A stretch of DNA of 64,000 nt, taken from Eukaryota sp. GEM-RC1. Its lineage: Eukaryota. Below, piece after piece: positions 23,771 to 61,455 of this stretch (the stretch's first letter is position 1; every line of letters begins with the position of its first letter). Under the pieces are notes generated by a model. It searched no databases, was not told the DNA's origin, and saw only the letters and a program-made list of their open reading frames with translations. Made by a program: the position numbers and the translations under genes. The DNA lies in contig JAUFOQ010000013.1 in assembly GCA_040285855.1 (NCBI GenBank), positions 1,488,001 through 1,552,000 of the forward strand. Reading direction: 5' to 3'.

Positions 23771-23869
23771 TTGACTATACTGTCAAATGGGGTACTGTTA
23801 TCAGAGAAAACAAATGACATAGGTTTATGAGACGGAGATAAGTGAAATCTATAAAGTTAAATATAAAAA

Positions 23870-24460
23870 TAAACAACAATTTAAGATCAATTATTCACAA
23901 CAGTCTACGTGATCAATGTTTAGAATTATTTAAAAGTATTGGTTTCCATGGTAAAATCGAACCAGTTTTAAATACCTTATCTGACTCAACTATGAGAGAT
24001 AGGAGCAGCGGTGATTTGTTTGGTCCTTGGTTGTCCTCTCAAGAAATAATTATGGACTTTACTACTGTTGATCCTTGTAACTCAACTTCTGTTAAAAATA
24101 TTTTTGGTGAAAACTATTCAGCTCTTGAAACTGCTGAGAGGAAAAAATTAAATCGATATGGCGAATTAATTTCCAATATGAATTCTAGCCGACACAATCC
24201 TTTTGTTTTCCATCCTTTTGCTATTTCTCTTTATGGAACTTTTGGTTGCTTCGGTCAACAATTTCTCACAGATTTTGGCAAATTGTGTAAGCAGTATGGC
24301 AAGAATTTTAATGAAAGTTACTGGAGAGGAATGTTGTCGTTTTCCCTTTTCAAAGTCTTATTTAGGTATTTTGATTCGATTTTGAACAGTCTCTTTACAT
24401 TGAGACATGAATTTGAGATGATGTAGAGGTATTTGCATCTCATTTGTTAATATTGATGAT
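23870..24460 (+). mobile_element. RLE non-LTR retrotransposon 3' fragment, family C (endonuclease ORF still open)
   Basis: RSIIHNSLRD..IEP..GDL..DFTTVDP..AERKKLNRY..FHPFAISLYGTFG, the RH..E..R.D..D..E..K..Y layout of an RLE domain. Confidence 0.85.
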
Positions 24461-29369: not shown

Positions 29370-30210
29370 AGTATTTGGAACAAAAACACCAAAATAAACA
29401 CAAATACTAAAACTCAATATCATTAAAGCAACAATCATTGCCATTAAAACTCACATCAGCTTTTTCTTCATAAAAAACACTGAGAGCTAATAGAGCTTTT
29501 GAAATCATGATAGGAATTGTTTTAAATATTGTAAAAACAATACGATTCAACCAAAATTTGAAATCAAATTTCTTGTTCATTCTTTTTTTGACCACTTTCT
29601 CAAAATCAGAGAGAAAACAAAGAGCATCTCGACCAAGTCGACCATAAATTGAAATCGCAAAAGGACATAATTTGTACTCAACATGTCTAATATGTTTGAG
29701 AGCAGTCAATGGTTCATCATATTTGTTTCTCTTGTATTGTTCTGAAGAATTCAGTGGAGAAACTTCATTTTTAGCATCCTTGAATGCACTTTTTTTGCAA
29801 ACATCCACAGTAATAACATCAACAACGGTTAGTTCATCATTGACTGATAGAACTATAACATCAGCTCTTCTTTTACCAAAAGACTTATCAGAATCACTAT
29901 TTTTTAAATTATTGATTTCCACTGATCTCAACAATGGCTCAACAAAAGATTCGATTTTGTAGGACTTACACATGTCATGAATTTGATCTCTGACAGCATC
30001 ATGAATACAAGTTCTATAAGTAATGAAACGATTACAACTCAAAAGGTGAGAAAAAGTAACTAATTTTGCACATTTACATTGAAGATCATTGGGTAATTTA
30101 GAGGGCCACAAGAAACATCGAAGTCTGAATGTTGTAGTCCATTGATAATCATTCAACAACAAACCATAAATCTGAGGAATTTGGTTAATCAAAGCAATGA
30201 ATATTTGTGA
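29370..30210 (-). mobile_element. 5'-truncated RLE non-LTR retrotransposon, family A, with open zinc-knuckle plus endonuclease ORF
   Basis: CKC..SHLLSC..IHDAVRD..VEP..RRADV..VDVITVD..EQYKRNKY..PFAISIYGRLG. No RT core is present. Confidence 0.88.
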
Positions 30211-30546
30211 ATTGTGTTCTTGGTCCATCTTCTCAACGTCAATGATCTCGTCGTTGAAGTAATACGGATTTATGTACTGAGTAAGTATCCAACAAGATTC
30301 TGCCCTTAGAATATCATAAGGATGTACTATTAAACGAACGAAGTTGTCAAATTGTTGCATTGTTAAACTCAACTCATAAAATGTTTGTCTTTTGAAACTA
30401 CACAAACAAAGTATTGACAGAGCCGTACACCACACAGGATTGGCAATGTGGGAAAGACAACATTAAGACTGAACAAGAATACTTGAAAATTTATGGTACC
30501 AAAATTAATACAAAGGCCGTAAAAAATACAAAGAAAAATACATTTC

Positions 30547-33500
30547 CTATTGTACGATCTTTTGGAACATCATATAAGTTACTGTAAGTCCACCACTGAT
30601 GTTGATAGTAGCAGCGGAGGCGGCAATGATAGCCAAAACATTAGCAACTACAACGTCACTTCCAACCAAACTCATGGCTCCCAAAATGACAATTCCAGAA
30701 ATTCCATTACTCAAAGACATAAGAGGAGAATGAAGGTTAGCAGGAACGGACCAAATAATAAAGAATCCAACAATGGAAGCAAGGACAAGAACCAAAAGCA
30801 TTTCTAACAAAATGAAGTTCTTAGGAGTAATGAGAGCCATTGCGAAAATGACAGCTGACAAAATGACCATAAGAGTGAATTTGGTAGCGCTAGTCATGGG
30901 TTTTGCTTCCTTCTTCTCAACAATTTCCACATCCTTAACTGGAGCAGAAGGTTTCTTGGAAACTTGAATAGGTGGATGAGAAAGTTGTTCACCGTTACGC
31001 AATAAAGTGGAGTTACGGACAACAACATCTTGTTCAAAGAGTTCATCAGTGTAAAAGGTTGCTTTACTTCCCTTTCCAAATTCTTCCAAAAGATTGACAA
31101 TGTTCTGACCAAACATTTGAGATGATTGAGTAGGCATTCTTGCGGGTAAGTTGGTGTAACCAATAATGGTAACATTGTTATTACCAACAGTAATTACTTC
31201 ACCTGGTTTGGTTAAAGTACAATTACCACCAGAAAGAGCACCCAAATCGACAATGACAGATCCGGGTTTCATAACGGCAACCATGTCCTCAAAGATAAGT
31301 TCAATTCGTTTTCCAGGAACAGCGGCAGTGGTAACAACGATATCGCATTTCTTACACATTTCAAGAGTCATTTCACGTTGAGCGGCCTTTTCACGTTCGC
31401 CAAGTTCTTTAGCATAACCACCAACACCAGATCCATCAATATCAATCTTAGGCTTGACAAATTTGGCACCAAGAGATTCGATTTCATCAGCAATTGGACG
31501 GGTATCAAAAGCGTATACCTCGGCACCAAGAGAGTTCAATAAACCAATACTGGCAAGACCAGCAACACCTGCACCAATAACGTAAGCCTTGACAGGTGGG
31601 AACTTTCCAGAAGCAGTAACCTCAGCGTTTAAGAAACGACCAATAACATTGGTTGCTTCAACAACACCTCTGAAACCAGCAGCTTTAGCTTGAGAAGACA
31701 AAACATCCATCTTCTGAGATCTAGAGATTCTTGGGATCTGTTCGAGAGCAGTAACAGTGAGCTTCTTCGCGTTCATCTTGTTGATGATTTCTTTATGGAA
31801 CTGGGGCATAACCAATGAAATAACATGTTGTCCTTCTCTCATCATTTCAACTTCTTCAAGAGTGGGAATATTGACCTTAATGATGACGTCAGCTTGTTCA
31901 ATGACACTTTGAGCATCGTTTGCAATGAAAGCGGCCTTAGCTTCATAGAGATCATCAGTGAACTTAGCACTATCTCCAGCTCCTGATTGAATAACAACCT
32001 TGAATCCCATCTTACGGAGACTGTGCGCGGCTTTAGGATCAACAGCAACTCGAGCTTCGTTTTCGAGAGTTTCCTTAAGGATGCCAACAGTAACATGATC
32101 TGCAAGCAATTCGGGGAGAGCTTCTTCCTCTTCAACAGTAACTGAAACAGTCATTTCAGTGTTTGCAGAGACATTGGACTTGGGAACGTCATTGAGTTTG
32201 GATTGAATAGCACCAAGAGATTCACGTGCATCTCCTAATACAGTTCTGCAGTTCTCCTTGACCAAGAGAGTAAGTGGTTCACCTGAATATCCAGAGTCGA
32301 GTCTCTTTGAACGCTTGAGAACATAAGCCTTTTTGCAATGATGGACGGGGCAAATAGGCATTCCAGCAATGTTAGAGTCCTTGGATTCTTGAGCAATGGG
32401 ATTGATTGTATCGGCACAACCAATGGCAATGGCAACGTCATAGGTTTCAAATTGACCCTTGAGCTCATCCAAATCAAAGATGAGTTCATAAGGGATGCTG
32501 TTTTCGGCAAGAATGACTGCCATATGACCAGGCATACGACCAGCAACGGGATGAACGCAGAAGTGAACAACAATACCACGGCTTTGTAGATCCTTCATGA
32601 TTTCAGCAACAATTGGTCCTCCTCTACTTTGAGCAAGTCCAAATCCAGGAACAAACAACACTTTCTTGGCATCAAGGCAAGCATCTACCAAATCCTTGGG
32701 AGAAGCGATTTGTACTTGAGAAGCATCGTAGTCGTGTTTAGCGGCAACTTTCATCTTTCCACCGAAAATAACAGCAGTCAGGGGACGATTCATAGCAACG
32801 GCCATGGCTTGACTCAAAATGATTCCGGAAGATCCAACTAGAATACCAACAATTACTAATGCGTTATATCCAGTAAGCATACCACAGAAGGCTCCACTCC
32901 ATCCACTGAGGGAGTTGAGAACACTGATGAGAACAGGGGAATCGGCACCACCAACAGCTAAACTCTAAAGTAAGACACAGATCAAAAGGTACAAACCATA
33001 ATGATACCAATAACAAAGGCAATGGCAGTGATGATGAGTAGATAAACGAGACCAATATCATCGGTGACTTGAGGATCTTCTAGATAGAACAAAACGGACA
33101 GAACAATGGTAGCGACAAGGAGAGCTATATTGAAAGTCCTGGAAAAGGGTCCAGACAGAGTCTTTTTGACCCAACCTTGAAGTTTCGAAGCAGCAATTAA
33201 ACTACCGGAAAAGGTCAAGGTTCCTAGAACCAGAGTGACAATAACAATGATCTTGTCAAAAGCATCATCTTCAACATCCTTGTTCATAAAGGAAGAAAAG
33301 GTAGCCAAAGCTGCGGAAACACCGCCAAAACTGTTGAAAATAGCAACCATTTGAGGCAATGATTCGAAGGAGATAGCACGGGCAAAGATAAAACCAACCA
33401 AACTTCCCAGAACAATAACAATGGATAGAGGAACGGTTCCCTCAACATTATCCTGAGTAAAGGCGGTAACAACAGCAATCAACTAGAATAAGACAGTCGC

Positions 33501-39279: not shown

Positions 39280-40007
39280 TTACAATTCTTCATCATAAAC
39301 CTTCTTCAAATCAAAGCAAGGTTCGTCAGTTCTGTGACAAACCATGGGATCTTGCCAGAACTTGCAGTAACTACAGGGAGGACACTTGGTCTTGGGTAAC
39401 AATTTGATACACCACTTGGGAAGTTGAAGTACAAGTTTTTGGTCAAAGAGAGATTTGGGGACAGCTTCAATGAGGTCAAGCTTCATTTCAAGTTGTTCAG
39501 TGTCCTTATCCTTGATGCTAATGATACCCTTGAATCTTCTCCAGCGGAAGAAATGCCAGACAGTCAAGATGACATTGTCGTCCTTGTCAATAGCACCAAC
39601 AACATTCCATCTATATCCTTGCATCCACATAACACCGCGGACGTTACCCTTTCCATCATGATGAAGTTCGGAAGAAACTGGCCATTTAGCAATAACCTTT
39701 TCAGTTTTGGGAGCAAAGTGATACTTGAATCCTCTCCAGTCACCGGTACCTTCCAAGACATCAAAGCGACGATCAGACCAAGGATAACGAGGGCAAATAG
39801 GACGTCCATCACAAGGAATATCTAATCCTTGACAAACGGGAATGTGAAGCCAATGTTTGCAGTAAGATTCAGGATCGAACTTTTGACAGAATTCGTCACC
39901 GTTGACAGGAGGTTCGGGTTCGTGGTGATGGGCAAATGCCACCAAGACAATCGCAGAGCTAATGTTAGAATTCTAAGTTCAACTTACAGTATCAGAAGGA
40001 CTTTCAT
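39280..40007 (-). CDS. Secreted Cys/Trp-rich protein, copy 1 (232 aa)
   Basis: Exon 1 MKVLLIL and 29-nt GTAAGT..CTAAC..TAG intron (39987-39959) create signal peptide MKVLLILSAIVLVAFA; two SYCKxW..VC..PC modules. Confidence 0.9.
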
Positions 40008-40333
40008 CTCAAAGAAGTCAAGGTTATTGGAGAAGTGGTAAGAATCTGCTGTTAAAGGGTTACTGTAGACTAGCTGTAAGTTATTTTACAGCTCTACAAT
40101 GCATTTTTGTCAATTCAAATTGTGCAATTTCAATTTCTATACTGGTGCTCAGTATTGAAACAGTCACACACTGATAAATCGAGCAGATTCACATCCCAAA
40201 ACAACAAGAAATCCACAATATACATCATCTTACAAACTGATGATCAAGTTTGTAATTATAATTATTCTTACAAAATAGCAATAATTTTCCAAAACTAAAA
40301 AACCTAACAGCTCAAACACGATTTATTCACTGT

Positions 40334-41061
40334 TTACAATTCTTCATCATAAACCTTCTTCAAATCAAAGCAAGGTTCATCAGTTCTGTGACAAACCATG
40401 GGATCTTGCCAGAACTTGCAGTAACTACAGGGAGGACATTTAGTCTTGGGCAACAATTTGATACACCATTTGGGAAGTTGAAGTACAAGTTTTTGGTCAA
40501 AGAGAGACTTGGGGACAGCTTCAATGAGGTCAAGCTTCATTTCAAGTTGTTCAGTGTCCTTATCCTTGATGCTGATGATACCCTTGAATCTTCTCCAGCG
40601 GAAGAAATGCCAGACAGTTAAGATGACGTTGTCGTCCTTGTCAATAGCACCAACAACATTCCACCTATAACCTTGCATCCACATAACACCGCGAACGTTG
40701 CCCTTTCCATCATGATGAAGTTCGGAAGAAACTGGCCATTTAGCAATAACCTTTTCAGTTTTGGGAGCAAAGTGATACTTGAATCCTCTCCAGTCACCGG
40801 TACCTTCCAAAACATCAAAGCGACGATCAGACCAAGGATAACGAGGGCAAATGGGACGTCCATCACAAGGAATATCTAATCCTTGACAAACGGGAATGTG
40901 AAGCCAATGTTTGCAGTAAGATTCAGGATCGAACTTTTGACAGAATTCGTCACCATTGACAGGAGGTTCGGGTTCGTGGTGATGAGCAAATGCCACCAAG
41001 ACAATCGCAGAGCTAATGTTAGAATTCTAAGTTCAACTTACAGTATCAGAAGGACTTTCAT
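40334..41061 (-). CDS. Secreted Cys/Trp-rich protein, copy 2
   Basis: Same structure and same translated protein as copy 1. Confidence 0.9.
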
Positions 41062-41393
41062 CTCAAAGAAGTCAAGATTATTGGAGAAGTGGTAAGAATC
41101 TGCTGTTAAAGGGTTACTGTAGACTAGCTGTAAGTTATTTTACAGCTCTACAATGCATTATTGTCGATTAAAATTGCGGTTTCAATTTCTATACTGGAAC
41201 TGTGCTCAGTATTGAAACTGTCTCACACTGATAAAGCGAGCAGATTCACATCCCAAAACAACAAGAAATCTACAATAAACATCATCTTGAAAAACTGATG
41301 ATCAAGTTTGTAATTATAAATATTCTTACAAAATCGCAATAATGGTACAAAACTAACAAAAACATAACAGCTCAAACATGATTTATTCATTGT

Positions 41394-42121
41394 TTACAAT
41401 TCTTCATCATAAACCTTCTTCAAATCAAAGCAAGGTTCGTCAGTTCTGTGACAAACCATGGGATCTTGCCAGAACTTGCAGTAACTGCAGGGAGGGCATT
41501 TAGTCTTGGGCAACAATTTGATGCACCATTTGGGAAGTTGAAGAACAAGTTTTTGGTCAAAGAGAGACTTGGGGACAGCTTCAATGAGGTCAAGCTTCAT
41601 TTCAAGTTGTTCAGTGTCCTTATCCTTGATGCTGATGATACCATTGAATCTTCTCCAGCGGAAGAAATGCCAGACAGTTAAGATGACGTTGTCGTCCTTG
41701 TCAATAGCACCAACAACATTCCATCTATAACCTTGCATCCACATAACACCGCGAACGTTACCCTTTCCATCATGATGAAGTTCGGAAGAAACTGGCCATT
41801 TAGCAATAACCTTTTCAGTTTTGGGAGCAAAGTGATACTTGAATCCTCTCCAGTCACCGGTACCTTCTAAAACATCAAAGCGACGATCAGACCAAGGATA
41901 ACGAGGGCAAATGGGACGTCCATCACAAGGAATATCTAATCCTTGACAAACGGGAATGTGAAGCCAATGTTTGCAGTAAGATTCAGGATCGAACTTTTGA
42001 CAGAATTCGTCACCGTTGACAGGAGGTTCGGGTTCGTGGTGATGGGCAAATGCCACCAAGACAATCGCAGAGCTGATGTTAGAATTGGAGGTTCAACTTA
42101 CAGTATCAGAAGGACTTTCAT
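41394..42121 (-). CDS. Secreted Cys/Trp-rich protein, copy 3
   Basis: One amino-acid change (K>N); intron interior diverged but splice signals kept. Confidence 0.9.
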
Positions 42122-42450
42122 CTCAAAGAAGTCAAGATTATTGGAGAAGTGGTAAGAATCTTCTATAAAGGGCAACTGTAGACAAACTGTAAGTTATTTT
42201 ACAGCTTTACAATGCATTTTTGTTGATTCAAATTCTACAATTTCAATTTCTTTACTGGACTGTGCTCAGTATTGAAACAGTCTCACACTGATAAAGCGAG
42301 CAGATTCACATCCCGCAACAAGAAATCCACAATAAACATCATCTGGAAAAACTGATGATCAAGTTTGTAATTATAATTATTCTTACAAAATAGCAATAAT
42401 GGTACAAAACTAACAAAAACATAACAGCTCAAACACGATTTATTCATTGT

Positions 42451-43178
42451 TTACAATTCTTCATCATAAACCTTCTTCAAATCAAAGCAAGGTTCGTCAG
42501 TTCTGTGACAAACCATGGGATCTTGCCAGAACTTGCAGTAACTACAGGGAGGACATTTAGTCTTGGGCAACAATTTGATGCACCATTTGGGAAGTTGAAG
42601 AACAAGTTTTTGATCAAAGAGAGATTTGGGGACAGCTTCAATGAGGTCAAGCTTCATTTCAAGTTGTTCAGTGTCCTTATCCTTGATGCTGATGATACCC
42701 TTGAATCTTCTCCAGCGGAAGAAATGCCAGACAGTTAAGATGACGTTGTCGTCCTTGTCAATAGCACCAACAACATTCCATCTATAACCTTGCATCCACA
42801 TAACACCGCGGAGGTTACCCTTTCCATCATGATGAAGTTCGGAAGAAACTGGCCATTTAGCAATAACCTTATCAGTTTTGGGAGCAAAGTGATACTTGAA
42901 TCCTCTCCAGTCACCGTTTCCTTCCAAGACATCAAAGCGACGATCAGACCAAGGATAACGAGGGCAAATGGGACGTCCATCACAAGGAATATCTAATCCT
43001 TGACAAACGGGAATGTGAAGCCAATGTTTGCAGTAAGATTCAGGATCGAACTTTTGACAGAATTCGTCACCGTTGACAGGAGGTTCGGGTTCGTGGTGAT
43101 GGGCAAATGCCACCAAGACAATCGCAGAGCTAATGTTAGAATTCTAAGTTCAACTTACAGTATCAGAAGGACTTTCAT
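42451..43178 (-). CDS. Secreted Cys/Trp-rich protein, copy 4
   Basis: Three amino-acid changes versus copy 1. Confidence 0.9.
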
Positions 43179-43505
43179 CTCAAAGAAGTCAAGGTTATTG
43201 GAGAAACGGTAAGAATCTGCTGTTAAAGGGTTACTGTAGACTAGCTGTAAGTTAATTTACAGCTCTACAATGCATTTTTGTCGATTCAAATGGTGCAATT
43301 TCAATTTCTATACTGGAACTGTGCTCAGTATTGAAACAGTCTCACACTGATAAAGCGAGCAGATTCACATCCCAAAACAACAAAAAATGCACAAAAAACA
43401 TCATGTGAAAAACTGACGATAAACTCTTCAATTATTCTTCCAAAATAACAGAAATGTAACAATACTAACAAAAACATAACAGCTCAAACACGATTTATTC
43501 ATTGT

Positions 43506-44233
43506 TTACAATTCTTCATCATAAATCTTCTTCAAATCAAAGCAAGGTTCGTCAGTTCTGTGACAAACCATGGGATCTTGCCAGAACTTGCAGTAACTAC
43601 AGGGAGGACATTTAGTCTTGGGCAACAATTTGATGCACCATTTGGGAAGTTGAAGAACAAGTTTTTGGTCAAAGAGAGATTTGGGGACAGCTTCAATGAG
43701 GTCAAGCTTCATTTCAAGTTGTTCAGTGTCTTTATCCTTGATGCTGATGATACCCTTGAATCTTCTCCAGCGGAAGAAATGCCAGACAGTTAAGATGACA
43801 TTGTCGTCCTTGTCAATGACACCAACAACATTCCATCTATATCCTTGCATCCACATAACACCACGAACGTTACCCTTTCCATCATGATGAAGTTCGGAAG
43901 AAACTGGCCATTTAGCAATAACCTTGTCAGTTTTGGGAGCAAAGTGATACTTGAATCCTCTCCAGTCACCGGTACCTTCCAAGACATCAAAGCGACGATC
44001 AGACCAAGGATAACGAGGGCAAATGGGACGTCCATCACAAGGAATATCTAATCCTTGACAAACGGGAATGTGAAGCCAATGTTTGCAGTAAGATTCAGGA
44101 TCGAACTTTTGACAGAATTCGTCACCGTTGACAGGAGGTTCGGGTTCGTGGTGATGAGCAAATGCCACCAAGACAATCGCAGAGCTAATGTTAGAATTCT
44201 AAGTTCAACTTACAGTATCAGAAGGACTTTCAT
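43506..44233 (-). CDS. Secreted Cys/Trp-rich protein, copy 5
   Basis: Three amino-acid changes versus copy 1. Confidence 0.9.
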
Positions 44234-45004: not shown

Positions 45005-47524
45005 TTAATCATTTAAAACAAAAGATTTAAGCTGTTCAACAACAAGAGAATCAAGCAAATCACAATGAATATTGATCCAATTATGAACAATAGAAACAAC
45101 TTTCAAATTATCAGCAATCTGTAAATCGAGTCCGCACAGCAAACTTAAAATTGAATTAATTGAAGAAACTCTGTTTTCAAAAATTAAATTTTTCGACAAT
45201 AATTTAAGATCAGCCAATAATAAATCAAGACTGGAAATCAACTCAAGTAATCTATTTCCACTAACTGCAAAGTCCTGGGAAGTCATCAGAAAGAGCTCAA
45301 TCAATTTAAGCGCTTTCAGTGAACAATTCTGATGGTCACTGGTAATTAAATAAAACATGGAATTCCAAATTTTTGCAATTAATTGAAGAATATTAAAAGG
45401 ATCGTGAGACAGAATAGAAAAACAACAGTACAAGATATCCAAAGTTAAACACTTTTCCAAAAACGATGGTGAATCCAACATGAAATCCACTCCTTCAATT
45501 AAGATATTTAACAATTTTTGAAATTTTGTACATGATTCTTCTGGGAGATTTCTCCAATCTACCACAACAGATTCTTTAAAAAGAGGCTTGACCAAGGAAT
45601 ATAGTGATCGAAGAAGAGAATCTCGATGATTTTTAAATTCAGACTGTGGAAGACAATTTAAAATTTCATTACCAAAAGACAACAGAAAAGGGAGAATGAA
45701 ATTATCAAAATCTTGTGATTTTTCAGAATTTGTTATTAACTTGAAAAGTCCTGCTACGAATTCCGTGCCAATACGACATTGATTATATCTCAAAGCAGTA
45801 GTTGCTGAATCAAGAATATAATCCAGGTTATCTGTAATTAATTGATGAGATGAAATATTCAAAGTTTCAGCAATATTTAAAAAGAAGTGCTCAGCACACG
45901 AATCCAAAAGAACTAAATCAAATGAAAAACATTCAAGAACAAGAAACACCACCATTGAGAACAACTGATTGAACAAGCTGACGTCAGATGTGATAAAAGA
46001 GGAAAGTGAAAGGGAACATGACGTGATCATAATGAGAAGAGAGTTTAGAGTTCGAGAAAGATTGGAAAAGGTGGAGTTTGGAGTGGATTTGAGAGAAGAA
46101 AGAAGAGAGAGTTGAGAGGAGATGTGTTTGGTTAGTAATTCGAAATATTCAAATATTATGAATTTTTCAAATTTTTGTGTTGATTGATGAGTACATCCGG
46201 CTAAGGAAAATGCGAGAAAAAGAGGATCATTGGTCGAAATATTGTGCAAAACATAAAATTTTAAAGATTCTGGGAGGGAAACTAGAAATTCGAAGAATAT
46301 TTTAGAATTGTCTGGATTTTCAAAAGAATTATGAAGAAAGTCCAGCGAAGTCTGACAGTCAGAAATATTACCGATTCTATGAGATTTAAGTGATAAAAAC
46401 TCTGAATAAACAAGAGAAAGGAAATTTGTAAAGGAAATATCAACTGAAATTTGAAATTTTGATGCTAAGAAGCTTGCTATGGATTGTCTTTGAAAATTTG
46501 AATTGAACACAAGGGTCAATACTTTTAAGAAATTAATATTTGTTAAGGAATTTAAAAAGGAACAGTCGCAATTTGGTGGAAGAAACGAGAATATACAAGA
46601 CTTGGAAGGAAATATGTAGAATATTAAAATATCATGAACAAGGGGTTGAAACGTTTTAAAATTTGTCTCAGAAAGTATTTGGATATTTTGAACATTTTTA
46701 AAAATCAAGTGAGGAGGCAATCAACAGAAGAAAAATGAAGGAGATTAGCTTGAGAGGAAACAACGAGACCGCACAGCAATTATTTAATAAATTTAAAATC
46801 GAACCGAACAGAGTAGAGCTGGAATTAATTGATGAAATTATGTTATGAATTGACCGAAAAAATTAAATAGTAATGGAAAAACTTTGTTTGAAGCAGCATT
46901 TTTCCATGAAAGAGAATAATTAACACAGAATTGGGATTCAGCAATATTGAACTTTTCAATGTTTTCAATATTTGTAATTACGTCTGAGAATTGTTGAACC
47001 GAAACAACAGCATCGTCTTGTAATAAACAAATTAAATTATTTGTGAAAAAGTCCAATATTTTGGAAAGCAACAATCCTCGAGTTGAATGATGACTCATCA
47101 ACTGCTGGCATAATTTCAAAATACCAGCAAAAACCCCTGGAAAGAAAAAACGCCCTAGTTTCAACAGGAAATGAGTTGAACAACAGCTCTAGAGAATCAA
47201 GAGAAGCAGTAGAGATGGAGGAGTTACTGGGAGAAAGAAGACGAATACATGAAGCAATGCAAGATCCTTTCAGTTGTATTGGTAAGCGGTGAGAGGAAAG
47301 GGTGGAGAAGAGAGATAGGATGAGGAGGGTAAGGTCTTCTGAGAGAGTTGTTTCGAGGAAACGTAAAGAACTGCTGCAAGATGGCTTGCAAGTGTTTCTG
47401 AGAGCTCGAGAGAAGATGAGTTGAGTGACTTTAGGTTTGTTTCGAGGAGAACTTTGTCTGTTGCAGTGAAGGAAGACTTGTTGGCAAGAGATGAAAGTGA
47501 CTGCAGGACAGATAGAGACACCAT
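45005..47524 (-). CDS. TTI1: TELO2-interacting protein 1-like HEAT-repeat protein; frameshifted in the assembly
   Basis: FFFPGVFAGILK and LITDNLDYILDSATTALR resemble conserved TTI1 motifs (FLPGI.S.L; L..N.DYL...I...LR). Spread over ORFs 47270, 46838 and 45005; probable ATG at 47524. Confidence 0.6.
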
Positions 47525-48730
47525 GGAAACAGTGAGACTATTGACACAGTTTGAAGCTACAAGATTCTGCTGTGGAAGAATTTCAGAAAAGAATACTCTA
47601 GCTGCATTGTGTGAATTTCTTTTCGGGTGCTTAACACCATTTTCGCTCCAGACTCCTAAAACGTTGTTCACTGTCATTCTTTCTCCTCCTGTGTCATCTG
47701 TTTCGATCTTGTTATGCCTTACGGTAACCTTCCTCAACCTCCTAGTGCAATTGCTGTCATTCAAAACTCGATTGGTTTGATTTGAATTCTTTGAGGTATC
47801 ATACTTCTTTATATACACTTGTTCGTGGATTTCGCTATACGGTTGCTGTGATTTCCTATCACAAAAATAGACACTTCGACTCTCTGACCAGTTTCAGAAA
47901 GGTTTCCGCCTCTTCTGATTCAATGTCAGCCAGATCCATAGACATAACAACTTCCTCAACAGGCACTCGGCTATTTGTCTGGATTGAGGGATTCTCTTCA
48001 ATTTGTCTTATTTTTTTGTAGTTGTTGAAAAACTGTCAGAACGTGTGAACATGAATACCCATTCTTTAAGGGATTAAGATGAACATGATAGGATCTATAC
48101 ATAATAAGAAGTTTTTCAAAAATACAGTGTATTAAAACGTTCTAATATTCGATCGAAAAAATACATAATGAGCTCATTATTAATAACACTCTAGACAAAT
48201 TGATTAACATAGAATCAAAGCGAACATTTACTATACACAACGCTGTCAACTTGATGATTGAGCAAAGAACGAATTCTTAAGTTGAATCTTATGAGATTCA
48301 ATCCAAAGGGACTTCTTCGTCTGGATGGATTAGTTGTTGAAGGAGAAGCGAAGTTTGGATAGAATGTCTTCTCATTAGTAAGTGATTTCCTCATTGGAGA
48401 GCCCTAGGCAAAGACTTGAACATCACAAGGGGAAGCAGGGCTAAAGAAACTGTAAGGGAGATGCTAAGAAACAAGAAGTGGGATGACTGGCAGGAAGTGG
48501 TGGGTGTATGGAAGGAATCTAGAAGGGAAGTTGGCAATAGGATACCGAGAGCAAGTGATGTAGGACTAAGAGAGTCAGAGCATTGCAGATACATAGGATG
48601 AGAAGACCTAGGATTACCAAATGACCGTGTAAGACAAGGCTACAAATTATATAGGTGTGACTATAACAGGGATGGGAAACTCAATATGATGAAAGGAAAG
48701 TGATTATGGTTGACCGGAAACTTCGACACC

Positions 48731-50676
48731 ATGGCACAACCACGTAAGTGTTTCACTCGGTCGTGTGCTCTGAACTCGCTGCTTATACCTTCAGCAGTTC
48801 ACCAGATTCGGTCTGACATTCCTCATGTCACCGAAGTCTGCCATGAAGCTTCTTTGCTTCTTCATTCTTTCCTTGTCACTTTCCCTATAGCGGCCAGAGC
48901 TATTGCGGAACAGGATGTCTGGTATCTCTTTATGACCGTCATCAACAAAAGTACCTTTCCTGCTCCTCAAACTTCGAAAGGACAAAGGCTTTTGTTGAAT
49001 GTCTTCTATGATGGTTTTCTACCAGAGTCCCCTGCTTCTTTTGTTCCTCCTTTTACTTTGGAACACCAAAACTTTTTAATTTCTGAGTGGAATTCTGATA
49101 TACTCACTTATGGGTTACTCCTCCAGAATTTCTTAAACTCCTGGCTAGCCACACAGACCTTTTCTGTGGTGAATAGCCCTAATCTTTCGCAGTGGTTTTC
49201 TTGCCGTTCTCGTCAGTTGGCAGCTAATGTTAAGTCTTCTCTGCCCAAAATATCCAGAGCTTGGATTAAAAATTTTCTATATGCCCATTGTCGGATCATT
49301 GAGACACCTCGTCAATTTTCATCACATCTTCTTTATCTCTTTTATAATCTTCCATTTAATGCTCCTTCTTTTGTTAATGTTTCCATTGACAATCAGTCTG
49401 AAAAAATCTTTTTACTTAACGCTGTCTACTTTATTTTCCATCTTTTCGATAGTTTTCCTGTCTCAGAAGGACTTTTATCTTCTGCTGACCACATAAATGT
49501 TTCTCCTAAAGAAATTCGTGAATTGTTTATCTTTAACCTATCAATTGCACAATTCTTAGAAACTTATTTAAGTGATTTTTCCCATTGTTGGAGACGGCTC
49601 CGACTGATCCCCCTAGCTTCTCACAAAGGGTCAAACATGTTGGATGTACCTCCAAACATCTTCAAAAGCAATGGAAGATTCCCTCCAGCTATAGGCACTA
49701 GGGCCAATCAATTTTCAATTTTGAACCAGAATTTGAAGAAAATTTTCAAAAATTGTCCACATGAAAAATTCAAAATGTGGAAGAAAAGTTATAAAAGAAA
49801 CTACAGAAAGTTAGCTCTCAAATCAAATGGAAATGAGCTTTTGATCACATTTGAACGGACTGAGCCAACCTTGGAGAAAGAAGGAGAGCCGCCAAAAAAG
49901 AAAACAAGGCGGACAAAACTTGAGATGCAGCAAGATCCTAAAGTCAACTGCATCAAATCCATCAATTTAAAAGGATCAAAGAAGAAGCCTCGCCGTCGCC
50001 CTCTAACTGCCCAGGAGATTATTCCTGAAGGCCCATTAGTGGGTGTGGATCTTGGTCAGTCACGTCTTTGTGGTTACTATTTGAATGAAGAAAACCACGG
50101 ACTGATCAAGTGTCCTACAGGCCGCCAGTTTCGAACAAACCCTTCTCCTCACAAAATGTCACCGAACCAATATTCCGTGCAAAATATTCACCTATATTTG
50201 AATCACTGGAATTTGGTAAGAAAACAGGTGTACAATAAGAGTAACCGGTCAAAGTGGAAGTCGATTAAGTTCGACAATCGAAGACGCAGAGAACGCCGCT
50301 TTCGTGAAGCTCTGAATACTTTCCAAGAGATTTCTGGTCATCCAGAGGAATTGTATCTGGCTGTTGGCTCAGCAAACTTTCCTTCCCATTTCCGGAAAGT
50401 TAAAAGATATGGATCAGCTCGATGCTTTCGGAAATGGCTGAATCACCAAAAGGAGTAAAACACTTTCCCACCAGTGAATTCAACACTAGCAAACTGTCAA
50501 GCTGCTGTATGTCACTAAACGAAGCAACCAGATGGTGGCAAATGAGAGTCTGTGCCAACTGCCATCAAGTATATGACAGAGATGTTTCCGCTGCTAAAAA
50601 TATTCAGACTAGGAAGAAAGCAGAGTTGTGGCCTGGAAGATACGTCTGTCCTGAGGTAATGTCGAGGAGAGTCTAA
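48731..50676 (+). CDS. Fanzor1-like (TnpB/Cas12-superfamily) RNA-guided endonuclease, about 648 aa after one A-run correction
   Basis: RuvC-I LVGVDLG, AVGSANF, Fanzor-type RuvC-II SEFNTSK, Zn finger CC..CANC and RuvC-III DRDVSAAKNI. ORFs 48710-50458 and 50422-50676 join (HQK-GVKHF) by adding one A to the A4 run at 50448-50451. Confidence 0.85.
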
Positions 50677-50679
50677 TGG

Positions 50680-50961
50680 AGAGATCGGTAGAAATGATAA
50701 ACAAAACCACTTTGAGACCGATCTGGGGAAGTATCTATCCCGGTAGATATGTTTGTCAGATCCATTTAGATAGATTAAGTCTAAGAAACTTTGTTCTGTG
50801 TAAGCAGTGTAAGCTGTGTAAGCAGTCGGTCTATCTAAGTGATGTAGCCCGTTGATGAAGATCATGATTGTCTTTGTCAGATGACGCTATATGTCTCTTA
50901 CAACCTGTGAAAACAGGAGTGAATTTCATAATTGGGAGTAATCAGTTGTTATGAAATTCAC
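50680..50961 (+). ncRNA. Candidate Fanzor omegaRNA scaffold / element right end (boundaries uncertain)
   Basis: Five stems: 50682-89/50717-24; 50731-50750 hairpin; 50763-76/50828-41 (14 bp with G-U pairs); CCTGT-GAAA-ACAGG at 50904-17; 13-bp inverted repeat 50919-31/50949-61. Confidence 0.6.
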
Positions 50962-51836
50962 AGTATCATTATCTCAACAATAACTACAGTTGCAAAACTG
51001 ATATTGACGCAATTTACATTGAACAATTAAACAGTTACACACAAAAAACCCGAATCAGATCCTGATGTACAGTATTTATGATATTACGAATTAAATAACA
51101 TAAATATTTTCTTACTATATATTAGCTGTTGATCGATCATAATTGCTAATTTTTCTCTTTGCAAATTGTGAGTTAATTAGTTTAGATAATACTAAACTAT
51201 CTTGCCATCCGGATCCAACTTCCGATATGATTACCCGACACCATCAAAATCTCTATTTATTGGACTAGTTTTATCTACAATCGAATAATCTAGGTCAGGA
51301 ATTGATGTACGACAACTATTACGGATCATGTTCAAAACCCAATAATAAATACTTAAAACCAGTGTTGTCAAATGCGCACTTTTTCCAAAAATGAAATGCG
51401 TCAAAATGCGCCAGATGCGAGCATTTTACGTGCGCATTTTGATTTCGAACTTGAGACAGCCCATAAATAAAAATCTTTTTCGTCATACTGATACATGTAC
51501 TCGTAATTCTATATTCCACATCCGTTTCGATATGTATCAAAATTCCACATCATTTGGCATCACGCTACAATTGTATACCAACCTCCTTCCAAAGGTTCTG
51601 TTGTATCAGAAGCTACAGTTCATTGTCGTAATTGTGTCCACCAGTTCGTCATTGGAACTAATAGTTTGAAACAATATTTTGTACCGGGGACGACGTAATG
51701 TTTTCTTGTTCAAAACTGTGTTCAGAACTTGTTGAAAGTCTTTAAGCTGAGTTGAGAGCTCGAAAACGCACATCCTCTTCTCATTGACCAATCTCATTAA
51801 ACAACTGTTACTGTTAATCACATACTCTATACAGAA

Positions 51837-51965
51837 TAGGGCTCTCAAATGACCCAGGTCAGGTCACCTCACCCAGCATTCATGCATTTCACCTGGGGTT
51901 CAGCTGGAAAATGACCTGGGTGAATTATCACTCACCCAGTGACCTGAGTGACCCAGGTCAAAATG
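51837..51965. mobile_element. hAT-like element end nested in the duplicated hAT copy
   Basis: TAGGGCT terminus followed by TGACCCAGGTCA / CACCCAG subterminal repeats; homology to the 25-26 kb copy stops exactly here. Confidence 0.6.
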
Positions 51966-52040
51966 AATTAAACAATTTATTTTTAATAAAACTCAATTTA
52001 CAAATTCTAACATACAATGAACAACATTATGAGTGTGACC

Positions 52041-52188
52041 CAGGGCTGTGAAAAAAATATAAACATTTAAATAACGGCAATAAATTACTGCAAAAATAAT
52101 TTATTTTTCTCAGGTAACATACGGCAATTATTGATTTTGCTTTATTCAGAGTGCAATAATTTATTTAAATGATTTTTTAACAGCCCTG
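52041..52188. mobile_element. 148-bp hAT MITE
   Basis: TIR CAGGGCTGT(G/T)AAAAAA; perfect 8-bp TSD GTGTGACC at 52033-52040 and 52189-52196. Confidence 0.92.
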
Positions 52189-52599
52189 GTGTGACCAATT
52201 TTCTACCCCACAACTAATCCAGTTCCCGCTTGTTCAAAAAAAATCTCATAGTCAAAATGCACAAGATCACAAAATCCCAAATGCGTAAAAAGACGTCAAA
52301 AGGCGCTAAATGCGTGCATTTGACGCATTTCTGAAGATTTATAACACTGCTTAATACACTGTACGAAAATATATTCCCATTATCCTTTTCTGTTGTTGTC
52401 TGGACTTTACTATATTGAAGGTTCTACATGTAGTTCCCTGTACATTTTATTTAAATTTTATCTTTTAGAAGTGTCAATGGCAAATACAAACTCGTGTCCG
52501 TTACGCCACCAATCGCAGTCATGCATATATTCCTCTTCGTCATACATCCAACATTCAGCCTCCGTAAATACGCCCTTATCATCGGTTACAAAGTTAGAT

Positions 52600-54140
52600 C
52601 ATACTTGTTGATAACAATAACAGTGTGATAACATGTGTTCGTGAAAACATGTTATAACAAACAGGAAATATCTTGTGATAACATTGGGTCTTTGTATAAT
52701 AAAAGTTTACAAAATTAATTACAACAAACAAATGGTTTGGAGAGGTACTGGTATCTCCTTTGTTAATAATAATGATGCTCTTGATTTGTATGATTAAATA
52801 AAGGTAGTGTTTTTACAAATAAATGGTATTTGTGTGTGAATACTTGTTAATTGTTGAAACTGTAGTTTTCAGTTAACCCAATATAATGTTCCACAACTAA
52901 AGGAGACTGACCACCAAACAACACAAACAATTTTCCTAATGATGAAAATATTCATTTGCCATCAGCATTGACGGATATTCCTTAAACAATCACGAAAAAC
53001 TTACGGAGAAGACAGAAAGCGAGGGCGACTCTGATGCAGCAAATGGGACTATTTGAAGCGATTGTTGTTGAATAGAGACTTGATCACAAGTAGACCGTGT
53101 GTGCAGAACATAGGAGGAAAACAGAGTACGAGTCTCAGTCTGTTGGGAAATACACCACATCCGAAAATAAAATACACTAAAATACACTGTACACTAAATT
53201 ACACTAAAATACAAACGTCTAACATAATAATATTTTGTTATTTTCATTTGTTGAAATTTTAGAATTGCCGCTTAATATCACCAATCAATGTCAATTTCGA
53301 TTAGCTCTCAATCCTGAGACATGATCAGATTCTACATCCTGATTCACCACTACCATTGAGTGTTTACCATTTGCAAATTGCATCTGGAATTTCATCATAT
53401 CCAATTTAGTGTCTTTGATTGAGTATTGAGATCATGTCTCAATTACAAAAACAATCCCAAATAATTAGTCCATCTGTTTGACGACCAAATCAAATTTACT
53501 GCACAAAAACAATTGTGGTTCACAGAAAATGACTTATTATATTAGATGATGAGGATATACCATCTTTGGAGGCCGGAGTTCGTGAGAGGGGGGAAAGAAG
53601 GGGTCTGATGTAAATACAAACGTCATTACAATACATACTGGAAGCTCACAGAAGAAATGGGGTAGCAAATAGGAATGTAAGAATGTTGTGTTTTTTAAGT
53701 AGATTAATAGCTTAATGTTAATGATTATGGGTTGATTAGTTATTCTGATTATTGAACCTTGCATAATTCGAGGCATATGACCGCTTGAATAGTCAAAATG
53801 AACGTTCTGGAAAAAATACAAAAATAACAAAAACAAACTATAAACCGAATTTAAAAAATCCAGAAAAATACAAAAAAATACAAATAAATCAAAAAGGTGT
53901 ATTTCTCAACTATGGTTTCAGTGATCACCCACTGATGAATTGCTAAAAGTAGTTTTGTTGTTGAGTGTAGTTCTTGGTGGGTGTTTCTAAACGTGCTTAT
54001 GAGCAGTGTTTGTATTTCAAAAACGGTTATCACAAATACCCTTTGTTATAACACGTGATAGTATGTCATCACATTTTGTTATTGTGATTGTGTGATAACA
54101 TGTGATCACAAATGGTAGTTGGTTGTTATTCACAAGTATG
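52600..54140. mobile_element. Non-autonomous hAT element
   Basis: TIR CATACTTGTTGATAACAA versus reverse complement CATACTTGTGAATAACAA; TGTGATAAC subterminal repeats; flanks agttagat / ctttagat (imperfect TSD). Confidence 0.75.
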
Positions 54141-55110
54141 CTTTAGATAGTTGTGGCATTTGTTCACAGCTAACAGAAGAACCAAGAAAAAATTATGAGA
54201 ATATCCTCATTTTTTGATTATATATGAGGCTTATCTTGGTACTGTAATGGCTTCCAAAAAACCAAAATATTTGAAAACGTATTTAACAATTACATTTGAC
54301 TAAAGAATTACCACACTTACAACAAATCGAGTTTTCAAAAATATAATAGCTTTGATGAAGTGTAAAAACGTAACAATGAACAAACAAACATCTAACACGG
54401 AGGTAACTTAGATTTTCAAGTTACCAACACTTCAACTGCCAATTATCCTCGACAATGTTCTCAAGCAATGATTTTGCTGAATCAATAAGAGAACAACTGA
54501 ACGGTGTTTCAGATAAATTTAAGTACAACGGCTTGTTTGATATATATGAAAATATGTCCGCAATTTTCAATTTGATTGAATCTTTGCACATTTCAATTGT
54601 TGGTCCGTTAGGAAGAAGGTCTTTTCAGCATTAGGCGGCTATCTTATTGCAATGATTACAAGCAATAACAAAAATGACGACGGGAAAAAAGAATTATCAA
54701 GTCCAGAATATACTACTACTAGTATCACTTCACTTTGATTGTTTCCAAGAGAATTGTCATAGTCAACCAGAATACAGTAATGAAGTTTGTTTTGAAGTCG
54801 GGTGGATGAGTTTGTGAGTGGTCCAATGATGTTACTGCCAGGGTTACTTGAGTAATAGCTGTTCCATCGACTTCATGGATATAATCCCACCATATTTGGT
54901 TAAGTCCATCGACGAGAATTGATAATTGATTCTGACTTTTCATTTTGAGACAACAAACCGGAAACATAATTTTAAATGGAACATGTCTAGCAGCATTATG
55001 AACAAGAGAACATCATTCACTAAAAAGTAGTATTTTGAACAAATTTATATTTATCTACAAACCAATTGATCCACAATGATGAATCTAGAATGGTTGTACA
55101 GCTTTAAAAA

Positions 55111-55844
55111 CATAGTTGCGAATCACAAATTTTGGTGATGTGATTTTGTGATGTGATTGTTGTGACTCACAAAATCACAGTGACATTCATTTGTGAGGTG
55201 AAATTGTGATTGTTGTGATATCCAATATCACAAAGTAAAACAATTGTGATTTTGTGATGTGATTGTTGTGACATCTAATTTTTTAGATTTGTCATTACCT
55301 TGTGTTCATTACTATCATACACAATGTTAAGAACAAGAATTCGGTTCACCAACTTTTGAGATAGATGTAAATTTAACATCGGAACTGAAGAAGCAATTAA
55401 TGTCTGTTATTTTTTTTAAAAATTGATGTCTTACTATTCGCGATCTATCTTAGACTCCGTGGAAGAACATAACTAGCTTACATCCGCAAACTTCCATAAG
55501 GAACTTCCTTTGGGATACGATTGGAGAGGTCCTAAATCTGATAGCCCATTTGGAAGGTCAACAAAGGGAAGCACTTTGATTTTATTACTCAAAGGTCGGA
55601 TTTGCGATATTATTGGACCTTACTACTAAACACTACAAAGGTCTTCCACAGCGTGAAATTAAGCGTAAGAACAAGAACAGAAGCTTACTTCAGTTGTTAC
55701 ATTTCATCAACTTTCCAGAATACGTTTTGTTCAATCATTGTGATGTTGTAATGTTAAATCACAAATATCACAAAAATATTGCTTGTGATGTGATTGTTGT
55801 GACTCACAAAATCACAAAGTCAAATTTTGTGATTCGCAACTATG
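55111..55844. mobile_element. Non-autonomous hAT element
   Basis: TIR CATAGTTGCGAATCACAAA; perfect 8-bp TSD TTTAAAAA; TGTGAT subterminal repeats. Confidence 0.9.
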
Positions 55845-55979
55845 TTTAAAAAAGCATAACGATTCAAGCGAAATCATCATCTCAATATATGACTATATTA
55901 GTTGCAAAACATTTAAAACATTTAAGAGAAATTCATGCATGGAACAGTAACAAAGGCTTAGGATTGTGGATTGATCACA

Positions 55980-60682: not shown

Positions 60683-60869
60683 TGTCAATCAAAAACTATG
60701 ATTTTCAATTGTCCTAAATTTGTGACACTTGTTTGACGAATGAATCTTGACATATCCTTTCATGCAGTTTTCTTGTAAATAGTGTCACTCTAACGCCACA
60801 CAGTACATTGTTGACTCTGAATCAAGTTCTGTATATGGATTCTGTAATTGAAGTTCACATTTAAATATT

Positions 60870-61455
60870 TAACGCTGTTCGTGACGTTACTTATGAAATG
60901 TTCAAATCCTACAACTATAGTTGTAAAATTGAACCTCTTCTGAAACATTATAGTGACAATAACGTGTTTGATTCTCGGCGTGGTGACTTAATTGCTCCTT
61001 TTCTGGATTCATCTCAAGTTGTGGTTGATTTTACTACAGTTGACCCGTTTGCAAAAGTCTACCAAGACTCCATACTGAATGATTCGAATGGTCATCTGGA
61101 AAAGGCTGAACAGCGAAAGTGTTCAAATTATGCGGATGCTTTGCAGAAGCTTAATGAAAATCTATATTATAAGTTTTCATTTATTCCAATTGCAATTTCA
61201 ATTTTTGGTAATATTGGTCCAGCCGGTTTAAAGTTTTTCAGTGATTTTAGTCTTTTATGTCGTTCTAATGGCAAGGTGTTTAATAGCGCTGTATGGATTA
61301 ATCGAATTATGTTTGCTCTTTATAGAAGCATTCTCAAGTATTTATGTTCCATTTATTCGAAGTTGTATAGGGACAATTCTCGTGTTGATGTGGAGAATTT
61401 AACTTCTTTCATTTTCTGAAACTGTATGTATTAATTTATTGTTGCAAATAAACTC
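60870..61455 (+). mobile_element. RLE non-LTR retrotransposon 3' fragment, family B (open endonuclease ORF)
   Basis: IEP..RRGDL..VDFTTVDP..AEQRKCSNY..FIPIAISIFGNIG; paralog at 22610-23050. Confidence 0.85.

Follow-up and report, generated by a model that had tools for sequence, protein, structure and literature searches.

A probable Fanzor1-type nuclease family in a likely skoliomonad, and a predicted exonuclease 1 fusion in its sister clade

The 64,000-nucleotide stretch of Eukaryota sp. GEM-RC1 DNA considered here (hereafter the window; assembly GCA_040285855.1, contig JAUFOQ010000013.1, positions 1,488,001 to 1,552,000 of the forward strand) carries at positions 48,731 to 50,676 a gene that is best read as one member of a family of Fanzor-type nucleases present in many copies. 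Its catalytic triad is present, and sequence comparison, structural modeling, and analogy with characterized systems suggest a mobile element that lacks a transposase and whose product would cut DNA under RNA guidance, a reading to which we assign a probability of roughly 0.72. A sequence-only reading of the same DNA had proposed a probably intact Fanzor1-like nuclease from a poorly sampled eukaryote, and that proposal is upheld in part below; it did not pick up the unbroken siblings, the candidate guide RNA, or the sister clade with its predicted exonuclease 1 fusion.

Gene layout and catalytic motifs

The gene is divided between a main open reading frame (ORF1) and an out-of-frame tail (Table 1). 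ORF1 is 95% identical to P0012 and 93% identical to P0016, two unbroken sibling proteins, and with an unbroken relative as the tblastn query the tail shows 100% identity to P0012 over 75 aa. All of the motifs named earlier are present, with LKSNG..ITFER, GVDLG, and AVGSANF in ORF1 and SEFNTSK, the zinc finger, and DRDVSAAKNI in the second frame. The triad is complete, with the spacing D440-E583-D618 in P0012 numbering, and the layout is that of the superfamily, in which a split RuvC domain and a D-E-D triad flank a TNB zinc-ribbon domain. The tail matches the Pfam family Cas12f1-like_TNB above its cut-off (E 2.5e-8) and three NCBIfam TnpB models with E of 1e-6 to 8e-6, far under their whole-protein cut-offs, while the first 575 aa alone matched no Pfam or NCBIfam family. 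The role of AVGSANF as the RuvC-II strand is proposed from alignment to relatives and from the TnpB literature (PMC10530073). LKSNG aligns to the TDG motif in the WED domain of Fanzor1 (PMC10711439); this position reads TDG, TNG, SDG, or SNG among relatives, and the motif is present, with SNG or TNG as a conservative variant.

Table 1. Features of the nuclease gene and its flanks, in window coordinates.
Feature	Position	Strand	Basis or remark
Main reading frame (ORF1), 575 aa	48731..50458	+	ATG at 48731; premature end NHQKE-stop
ORF1 content: WED, REC, basic linker, RuvC-I, REC2/bridge helices, RuvC-II strand	48731..50458	+	
Out-of-frame tail with the displaced Glu, the zinc finger, and RuvC-III; stop codon at 50674-50676	50449..50676	+	
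LKSNG (of the LKSNG..ITFER segment), aligned to the WED-domain TDG motif of Fanzor1	49817..49831	+	
Basic low-confidence linker (PKKK, KKKPRRR), candidate nuclear localization signal	49892..49999	+	Putative function
RuvC-I Asp440 in DLG (motif GVDLG)	50048..50050	+	DPG or DPN in nearest relatives
AVGSANF, proposed RuvC-II strand; Gly at the canonical TnpB Glu position	50360..50380	+	Alignment to relatives
A4 run, sole break of the gene	50448..50451	+	Four sibling proteins read through here
Displaced catalytic Glu in SEFNTSK, six residues ahead of the zinc-finger position (Glu583 in P0012)	50476..50478	+	
Zinc finger S-S-C-C x14 C-A-N-C; Ser replaces the first canonical Cys	50497..50562	+	
RuvC-III Asp in DRDVSAAKNI (Asp618 in P0012)	50581..50583	+	
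Candidate omega-RNA scaffold: non-coding stretch with strong folding that follows the stop codon	50677..50963	+	Folding signal
Terminal hairpin, perfect 13-bp stem, with a 5-bp GAAA-loop hairpin before it	50919..50961	+	
Flank that would supply the guide; boundary estimated from one copy	50964..50980	+	
Stretch before the ATG, tentatively the place of the left end	48595..48730	.	Host-like coding sequence, other strand, starts just upstream

The published definition of the superfamily is the motif D-X(125,275)-[TS]-[TS]-X-X-[zinc finger]-X(5,50)-RD with a C4 finger, CxxC..CxxC (Bao and Jurka, 2013; PMC3627910), and D440, T586-S587, and R617-D618 of P0012 fall within this spacing. The Fanzor fingerprint is narrower, requiring both DPG at RuvC-I ("near exclusively") and a Glu that precedes the zinc finger by six residues (Yoon, 2023; PMC10711439). 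The earlier claim of a Fanzor signature therefore holds in part: the displaced Glu is in place by the zinc finger, as E583-FNTSKL-S590, but the gene has DLG instead of DPG. Neither the DLG nor the Ser at the first zinc-finger position had been remarked on in that reading, and its view of the gene as catalytically competent was put too strongly.

Fold and comparison with known systems

The structure of P0012 was modeled from 18 aligned sequences, with a pLDDT (predicted local distance difference test) score of 66.7 and a predicted template modeling (pTM) score of 0.46. Its top PDB match in Foldseek is SpuFz1 (E 4.4e-5), and the 12 matches at E<=0.001 comprise seven Fanzor1 chains, one Fanzor2, and four Cas12f. 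Structural comparison with VIA aligned 441 residues with both SpuFz1 (Z 12.6, root-mean-square deviation (rmsd) 18.1) and PpFz1 (Z 13.2, rmsd 17.9), and 177 with Fanzor2 (Z 11.6, rmsd 4.5); overall, 415-449 residues aligned with Fanzor1 chains as against 177 for Fanzor2 and 274 for TnpB. The nearest ESM Atlas clusters hold TNB/DUF8286 proteins of 650-820 aa, mostly from giant viruses (score 0.97-0.98; template modeling (TM) score 0.61 over 497 residues), TnpB-sized clusters reach a TM of 0.35-0.45 by query, and the viral structure library ranks 570-780-aa proteins of large DNA viruses first (best E 3.4e-10). The RuvC/TnpB-type fold anticipated by the sequence-only reading was thus recovered, and both the size of 648 aa and the fold are Fanzor1-like. 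Fanzor1 proteins, of about 600-800 aa, are marked by large REC insertions and a kinked pair of REC2 helices; the P0012 model has helices at 483-535, in a REC comparison limited by the rmsd of about 18 to Fanzor1 chains and by a failed model of the N-terminal lobe. Fanzor2 proteins are shorter (about 500 aa), and no serine recombinase of the IS607 kind was found among 12 neighboring ORFs scanned. The flanking genes and the named relatives are eukaryotic, and the order of motifs resembles that of Rhizopus and Trebouxia Fanzor rows in a published supplement, as compared by eye (PMC10711439). Taken together, the sequence and model suggest that the gene encodes a Fanzor1-type nuclease, probably descended from Fanzor1.

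The best-studied counterpart is SpuFz1 of the Spu-1 element of Spizellomyces punctatus (PDB 8gkh; PMC10432273), which shares a length of about 640-650 aa and the D-E(displaced)-D triad. Spu-1 is likewise a single-ORF multicopy element without its own transposase and with a structured RNA region after the stop codon. SpuFz1 is only 12-13% identical to the window protein and differs from it at the DLG and the first-position zinc-finger Ser, and Spu-1 has 30-nt inverted repeats, whereas none were found at the window locus. PpFz1 (PDB 9cf1) and GtFz1 (PDB 9cer) also align over the whole length (441 and 415 residues, rmsd about 18; PMC11423790), although GtFz1 has Asn as its third catalytic residue where the window gene has Asp. 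The uncharacterized giant-virus TNB/DUF8286 proteins of BFVD and the ESM Atlas are alike in fold but only 11-14% identical. Fanzor2 (ApmFz2, 9b0l) and TvTnpB share the displaced Glu and an alignable RuvC core; these proteins are shorter, the alignment to Fanzor2 is confined to its nuclease lobe (177 residues), and the window locus has no IS607 recombinase. Finally, Carpediemonas membranifera KAG9392881.1 (Table S2 of PMC10711439), from another metamonad host, has by eye a similar order of motifs (DPG, a G-G-Y-Y strand, an RF..HI..QK helix, and RD.SAAKNI), although it is a fragment of the 270-aa class with DPG and could be compared from its table row only.

Copies, host, and ancestry

The window protein heads a 90% identity cluster of 11 proteins, the other ten of which are labeled Eukaryota sp. 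GEM-RC1 and lie on six contigs. Two proteins of this cluster, P0012 (648 aa) and P0016 (646 aa), are full length and unbroken, and intact copies thus exist elsewhere. A related-species cluster labeled TZLM1-RC, about 58% identical, has 82 members (40 read, 15 listed), among which P0023 (651 aa) is whole. Since cluster members are gene models, two fragments may stem from one locus. When 1.84 billion representatives were searched with a profile, 36 matched, and the ten that were looked up comprise four from TZLM3-RCL, one from GEM-RC1, and five weak matches (E 1e-5 to 1e-3). These labels belong to Skoliomonas isolates, which are anaerobic metamonads (PMC11603281), and the host of the window is therefore likely a skoliomonad (Metamonada), in keeping with the earlier suggestion of a poorly sampled eukaryote. 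Pattern scans detected no related locus in metagenome contigs and no relative in viral contigs, while the prokaryotic scan gave a single match to 30 residues of the REC region and the plasmid scan a single match to the zinc finger only, both uninformative.

Because the family is multicopy and rich in fragments, it is read as a mobile element rather than a domesticated gene, and the suggestion of domestication made earlier is not supported. Between the GEM-RC1 and TZLM1-RC families the REC region is 46% identical, compared with 68-81% for the RuvC and zinc-finger parts. Among the family proteins fetched, the triad is kept at Asp-I in 24/24, at Glu in 19/20, and at Asp-III in 18/18, counts that include only proteins whose motif was found by pattern, such that badly decayed motifs would escape. 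Since the nuclease parts are better conserved than REC and nearly all copies read keep the triad, the comparison points to selection acting on nuclease function.

The closest relatives carry DPG at RuvC-I (E 8e-78 and 1e-70) and the next ones DPN: P0037 and P0040 combine DPG with DE(Y/F)NTSK, and P0055, P0057, and P0058 have DPN. In a midpoint-rooted tree with unlabeled outgroups, which covers the C-terminal 375 residues of 18 proteins other than fragments and carries a long-branch warning, the DLG group (100/99) is sister to the DPG families of TZLM3-RCL (95/96) within a 14-row skoliomonad-labeled clade (99/97); four other DPG proteins fall outside this clade. The first zinc-finger Cys is missing in all 13 skoliomonad-labeled rows where the motif was read, DPG rows included. 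Because the nearest relatives carry DPG or DPN, DLG is most simply a derived change and not a sign of separate origin, and together with Ser-Glu in place of Asp-Glu and the zinc-finger Ser it is read as lineage drift in an enzyme that appears to be under selection still. The branching of the clade, with TZLM3-RCL first and then GEM-RC1 with TZLM1-RC, matches the published host tree (PMC11603281), which suggests vertical inheritance and long residence of the clade in its hosts.

Two further patterns were seen within the clade. The DPN proteins P0055, P0057, and P0058 and their clusters make up another Fanzor branch of skoliomonads; one cluster has six members that are 592 aa long and another has four of 604-605 aa, and these near-equal lengths suggest recent spread. 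Within the window's own cluster, P0012 and P0013 differ from P0016, P0008, and P0009 by two sequence types in the WED block (columns 312-376), the rest being near-identical, which suggests recombination between subfamilies or different target motifs.

The frame break in the window copy

The run of four adenosines at the break was confirmed, and the two tblastn blocks of an unbroken relative meet there. Six cluster members span the site; four of them read through, and the window copy and P0010 both stop at NHQKE. P0010 lacks private substitutions of the window copy at positions 405, 425, 502, and 503, and the two losses therefore look independent and site-specific, as expected of either recurrent homopolymer error or recurrent slippage. 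Host genes show the same kind of lesion, as had been asserted from the sequence: in 4 of 15 host-gene junction windows a homopolymer run is short by a single base (two cases in an AAA ATPase, one in a kinase, and one between a kinase and a leucine-rich repeat ORF), two look like introns, and the remaining nine have no assignment. In the AAA ATPase, Pfam AAA positions 1-54 and 45-130 fall in different frames. Short-read correction of nanopore assemblies fails in repeats. The named siblings come from nanopore assemblies corrected in this way (10.1101/2023.05.03.539051). Since four of six copies read through and host genes lose single homopolymer bases, the break is probably an assembly or sequencing error, and the gene itself probably intact, as first proposed. 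As whole copies exist, the question of error or pseudogene is a minor one for the family. Programmed frameshifting was considered and dropped, as four siblings read through without it and the site has no slippery heptamer.

Candidate guide RNA and element boundaries

Fanzor guide RNAs sit after the stop codon at the right end of the element (PMC10432273, PMC11423790). In the window, positions 50660-50985 fold with -98.6 kcal/mol (z -4.25; 0 of 100 shuffles), with the strongest folding in the last 100 bases, which end in the perfect 13-bp stem; the best 100-nt window (z -5.04) is level with the minimum among 120 random windows (-4.97). By analogy with characterized elements this stretch is a likely candidate for the guide RNA; no Rfam family matches the region. 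At up to about 285 nt, it exceeds the 75-150 nt of three solved Fanzor1 RNAs (PMC11423790), and the real RNA may thus be only its 3′ part. The terminal hairpin (Table 1) likely lies near the right end of the element. An unrelated repeat starts at 50981 and occurs again at 26798-24977, there with no nuclease gene, which places the right end of the element at or before 50980. The two copies of this repeat (50981-52600 and 26798-24977) are 1.6-1.8 kb long, lie in opposite orientation with 93-96% identity, and have a different insert in each and no long ORF.

The earlier statement that no transposase, terminal inverted repeat (TIR), or target-site duplication (TSD) is visible was borne out at the locus by a scan of 12 neighboring ORFs and by TIR and TSD tests of 48595-48730 against 50677-50985, which gave chance-level results (243 and 448 of 500 shuffles). 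No second copy of the hairpin arm was found beyond chance. On the minus strand, positions 22350-22365 match 50957-50972 at 15/16, across the predicted right end; since about 1% of the window's 12-mers are found two or more times, this match may be chance. A gene model outside the window, P0056, joins a transposase-like helix-turn-helix (weak Pfam match, E about 0.01) to a fragment of the window's family, and may represent a partner transposase or a chance neighbor. This helix-turn-helix presumably resembles the N-termini of Tc1/mariner-type transposases. Upstream, a TTI1-like host gene with many broken frames and weak Pfam hits (45005-48594, minus strand) lies head-to-head with the nuclease gene, about 136 bp apart if its candidate start at 48594 is right; the candidate TTI1 N-terminus at 48394-48594 has no Pfam match.

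Proposed mechanism

Characterized Fanzor and TnpB systems provide a model for how the element may act (PMC10432273, PMC10530073). RNA from about 50680-50963, together with the next 15-20 flanking bases, would load into the protein, and the complex would seek a short target-adjacent motif and then the flank sequence, a junction that would be present only where the element is absent. The RuvC domain would make a double-strand break, and host recombination would repair it from an element-bearing copy, so that the element persists or spreads. A transposase acting in trans would have to provide for movement to new sites.

An EXO1-Fanzor fusion in the sister clade

The sister families, which lie outside the window, hold an unexpected domain combination. 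P0072 (1,323 aa; P0037 cluster) consists of a leader, a 2A-like GDVEPNPG followed by Met, XPG_N and XPG_I domains, an acidic linker, and a whole Fanzor. The named best matches of its nuclease domain are almost all exonuclease 1 (28-34%), and, as read through alignment to rodent EXO1, it keeps 7/7 of the acidic residues described for human EXO1 (PMC5499597). P0072 thus resembles eukaryotic exonuclease 1 (XPG/FEN1 family) in both XPG domains and all seven acidic residues, and is unlike it in the acidic linker and Fanzor behind and in the 2A-like motif ending NPG-M ahead. Canonical 2A motifs require Pro after NPG (10.64898/2026.09.24.754024), which makes skipping at NPG-M doubtful.

In the P0037 cluster, four of nine members carry the EXO1 domain, and three of these (P0072, P0070, and P0067, on three contigs) cross from EXO1 into the Fanzor start. 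P0068 is another EXO1-domain gene model alongside P0072, P0070, P0067, and P0051. P0051 is 97% identical to P0076 of a second family over a 37-residue overlap, aligns to P0072 at 29% across the EXO1-Fanzor junction, and has a match (E 3e-4) to a profile built on 30 outside EXO1 proteins. An in-frame EXO1-Fanzor fusion is therefore predicted in two families labeled or linked to TZLM3-RCL, whose Fanzor parts share 45% identity; the prediction comes from gene models, in which introns could have been used to join the parts. Whole gene models of the DPN and DLG families begin at the Fanzor start, and the window holds no EXO1 remnant (best profile E 0.44, elsewhere in the window), and the simplest account is that EXO1 was gained once, on the branch that leads to both fused families.

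Querying with P0072 residues 590-1323, a word-limited and weak search, found no other long Fanzor fusions at E<=0.01 among 7,996 candidates. In the ESM Atlas, P0072 lies nearest to a Mucoromycota TNB cluster (1,312 aa) for which no XPG family is shown; this serves as a lead only. No report of a Fanzor-XPG or Fanzor-EXO1 fusion was found in the literature searched, with most subscription papers and Repbase outside its scope. Exonuclease and fusion terms are absent from the main text of PMC10432273 and PMC3627910, and XPG or exonuclease has no match in the machine-readable supplement files of three Fanzor papers.

Counter-evidence and alternative explanations

Several results weigh against the reading of the gene as an active, transposase-less Fanzor1-type element. 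The window's family has DLG where its sister families have DPG, and its zinc finger has four Cys with Ser in the first position in place of the canonical C4 arrangement. Because these two published letter-level features are missing, the family is filed as a Fanzor variant and not as a canonical member. The VIA Z-scores of Fanzor1, Cas12o1 (13.5), Cas12X, TnpB, and Cas12f differ by no more than about 1, and with these near-ties and an rmsd near 18 the fold alone cannot separate Fanzor1 from its relatives. A ten-member family profile retrieved no solved Fanzor by sequence, and the N-terminal lobe folded alone reached a pLDDT of 50 with no match at E<=0.001. Nine of the 11 members of the GEM-RC1 cluster are partial gene models, and no TIR, TSD, or transposase was found at the one locus seen. 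Private substitutions over 575 aa number 14 in the window copy compared with 10 in P0012 and 1 in P0016, which is compatible with some decay, and long unbroken host ORFs nearby (805, 722, and 571 aa) count against an assembly error.

These last points bear on the possibility that family and mechanism are as proposed while the window copy is a true pseudogene, in which real slippage from A5 to A4 has removed the Glu, zinc finger, and RuvC-III. The 14 private substitutions and the many partial siblings fit this account, slippage mutation likewise favors homopolymer runs, and the unbroken host ORFs indicate that errors are not ubiquitous. However, the AAA ATPase and kinase, unlikely to be dead, show the identical type of one-base loss, an otherwise unrelated copy (P0010) is broken at the same site, and there is no further lesion within 1.95 kb, with a tail identical to that of an unbroken copy; a pseudogene is thus the less likely alternative, if the most serious one. 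At the other extreme, the gene could be a domesticated single-copy host gene, as the lack of visible element ends and the head-to-head position with host-like coding sequence might suggest. The cluster of 11 at 90% and the 82 members in a related species, mostly fragments, already refute this unless one copy proves syntenic across species, and we regard it as the least probable of all.

The nature of the enzyme and of its spread allows other accounts. The DLG branch could be a weak or non-cutting RNA-guided DNA binder, with three departures by catalytic or metal sites (DLG, SE for DE, and Ser for the first Cys) marking loss of cleavage. This appears improbable, since all three acidic residues are kept in two species, loss of the first Cys is common to the 13 skoliomonad-labeled rows including those with DPG, D-hydrophobic-G is the normal TnpB form (PMC10711439), and a TnpB with the displaced Glu cuts DNA (PMC10530073). 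One prokaryotic TnpB clade pairs D-hydrophobic-G with a displaced Glu (PMC10711439), and the same pair in the window gene might indicate an independent eukaryotic capture of such a TnpB, a third Fanzor origin. That origin is already largely refuted, and very improbable, given the DPG and DPN of successive relatives, the placement of the DLG group beside DPG families inside a DP-motif clade, the TDG-like motif and 650-aa size, and the absence of any credible prokaryotic or plasmid relative in the scans. A further account departs from the preferred one in the means of dispersal, in that the clade would spread transposase-free by RNA-guided homing, with sister families bringing their own EXO1 for resection and the window's branch using the host enzyme. 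The fusion, with seven acidic residues kept and two families only 45% identical in the Fanzor part, the lack of a transposase or TIR near the window copy, and the large copy numbers speak for it. Yet copying into empty alleles poorly explains dispersal over six contigs, Spu-1 also lacks a linked transposase and has inverted repeats (PMC10432273), P0056 joins a transposase-like domain, weakly matched, to a family fragment, and the element ends are unseen; homing as the sole means of spread is thus unlikely, though less so than a non-cutting enzyme.

Other features of the window

Small elements resembling miniature inverted-repeat transposable elements, with 17-bp and 49-bp inverted repeats, lie at 52040-52189 and 55103-55852. 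Five tandem, near-identical 230-codon ORFs at 39280-44198, spaced by about 1,055 bp, are rich in Trp and Cys and have no Pfam match. Three related ORF remnants (23842-24426, 29407-30462, and 60865-61419), for one of which Pfam was tested and gave no clear match, we take to resemble the C-terminal nuclease part of non-LTR (long terminal repeat) retrotransposons. On the minus strand at 30547-33482 is an NAD(P) transhydrogenase with its beta and then alpha domain in one frame and a likely short intron near 32970-33010.

Significance

The family extends Fanzor1-type nucleases to a new metamonad lineage in which two unbroken copies exist, and indicates that the DPG fingerprint has exceptions that motif searches would miss. 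The literature search found no paper that pairs Fanzors with metamonads; because a published supplement lists the Carpediemonas match (PMC10711439), however, a metamonad Fanzor has been recorded before. Fanzors are common, so the gene alone is less remarkable than the sequence-only reading held, and the larger point is the EXO1 fusion of the sister clade. If true, no natural fusion of a Fanzor with an exonuclease would have been described before it. We tentatively raise the possibility, at well below an even chance, that the skoliomonad Fanzor clade is a self-contained homing machine, in which the sister families would couple cutting and 5′ resection in one polypeptide, thereby biasing repair toward copying of the element without need of a transposase, and the DLG branch would borrow resection from the host. 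For the question of what Fanzors do for the elements that carry them in eukaryotes, a resection enzyme built into the protein would directly support the homing model.

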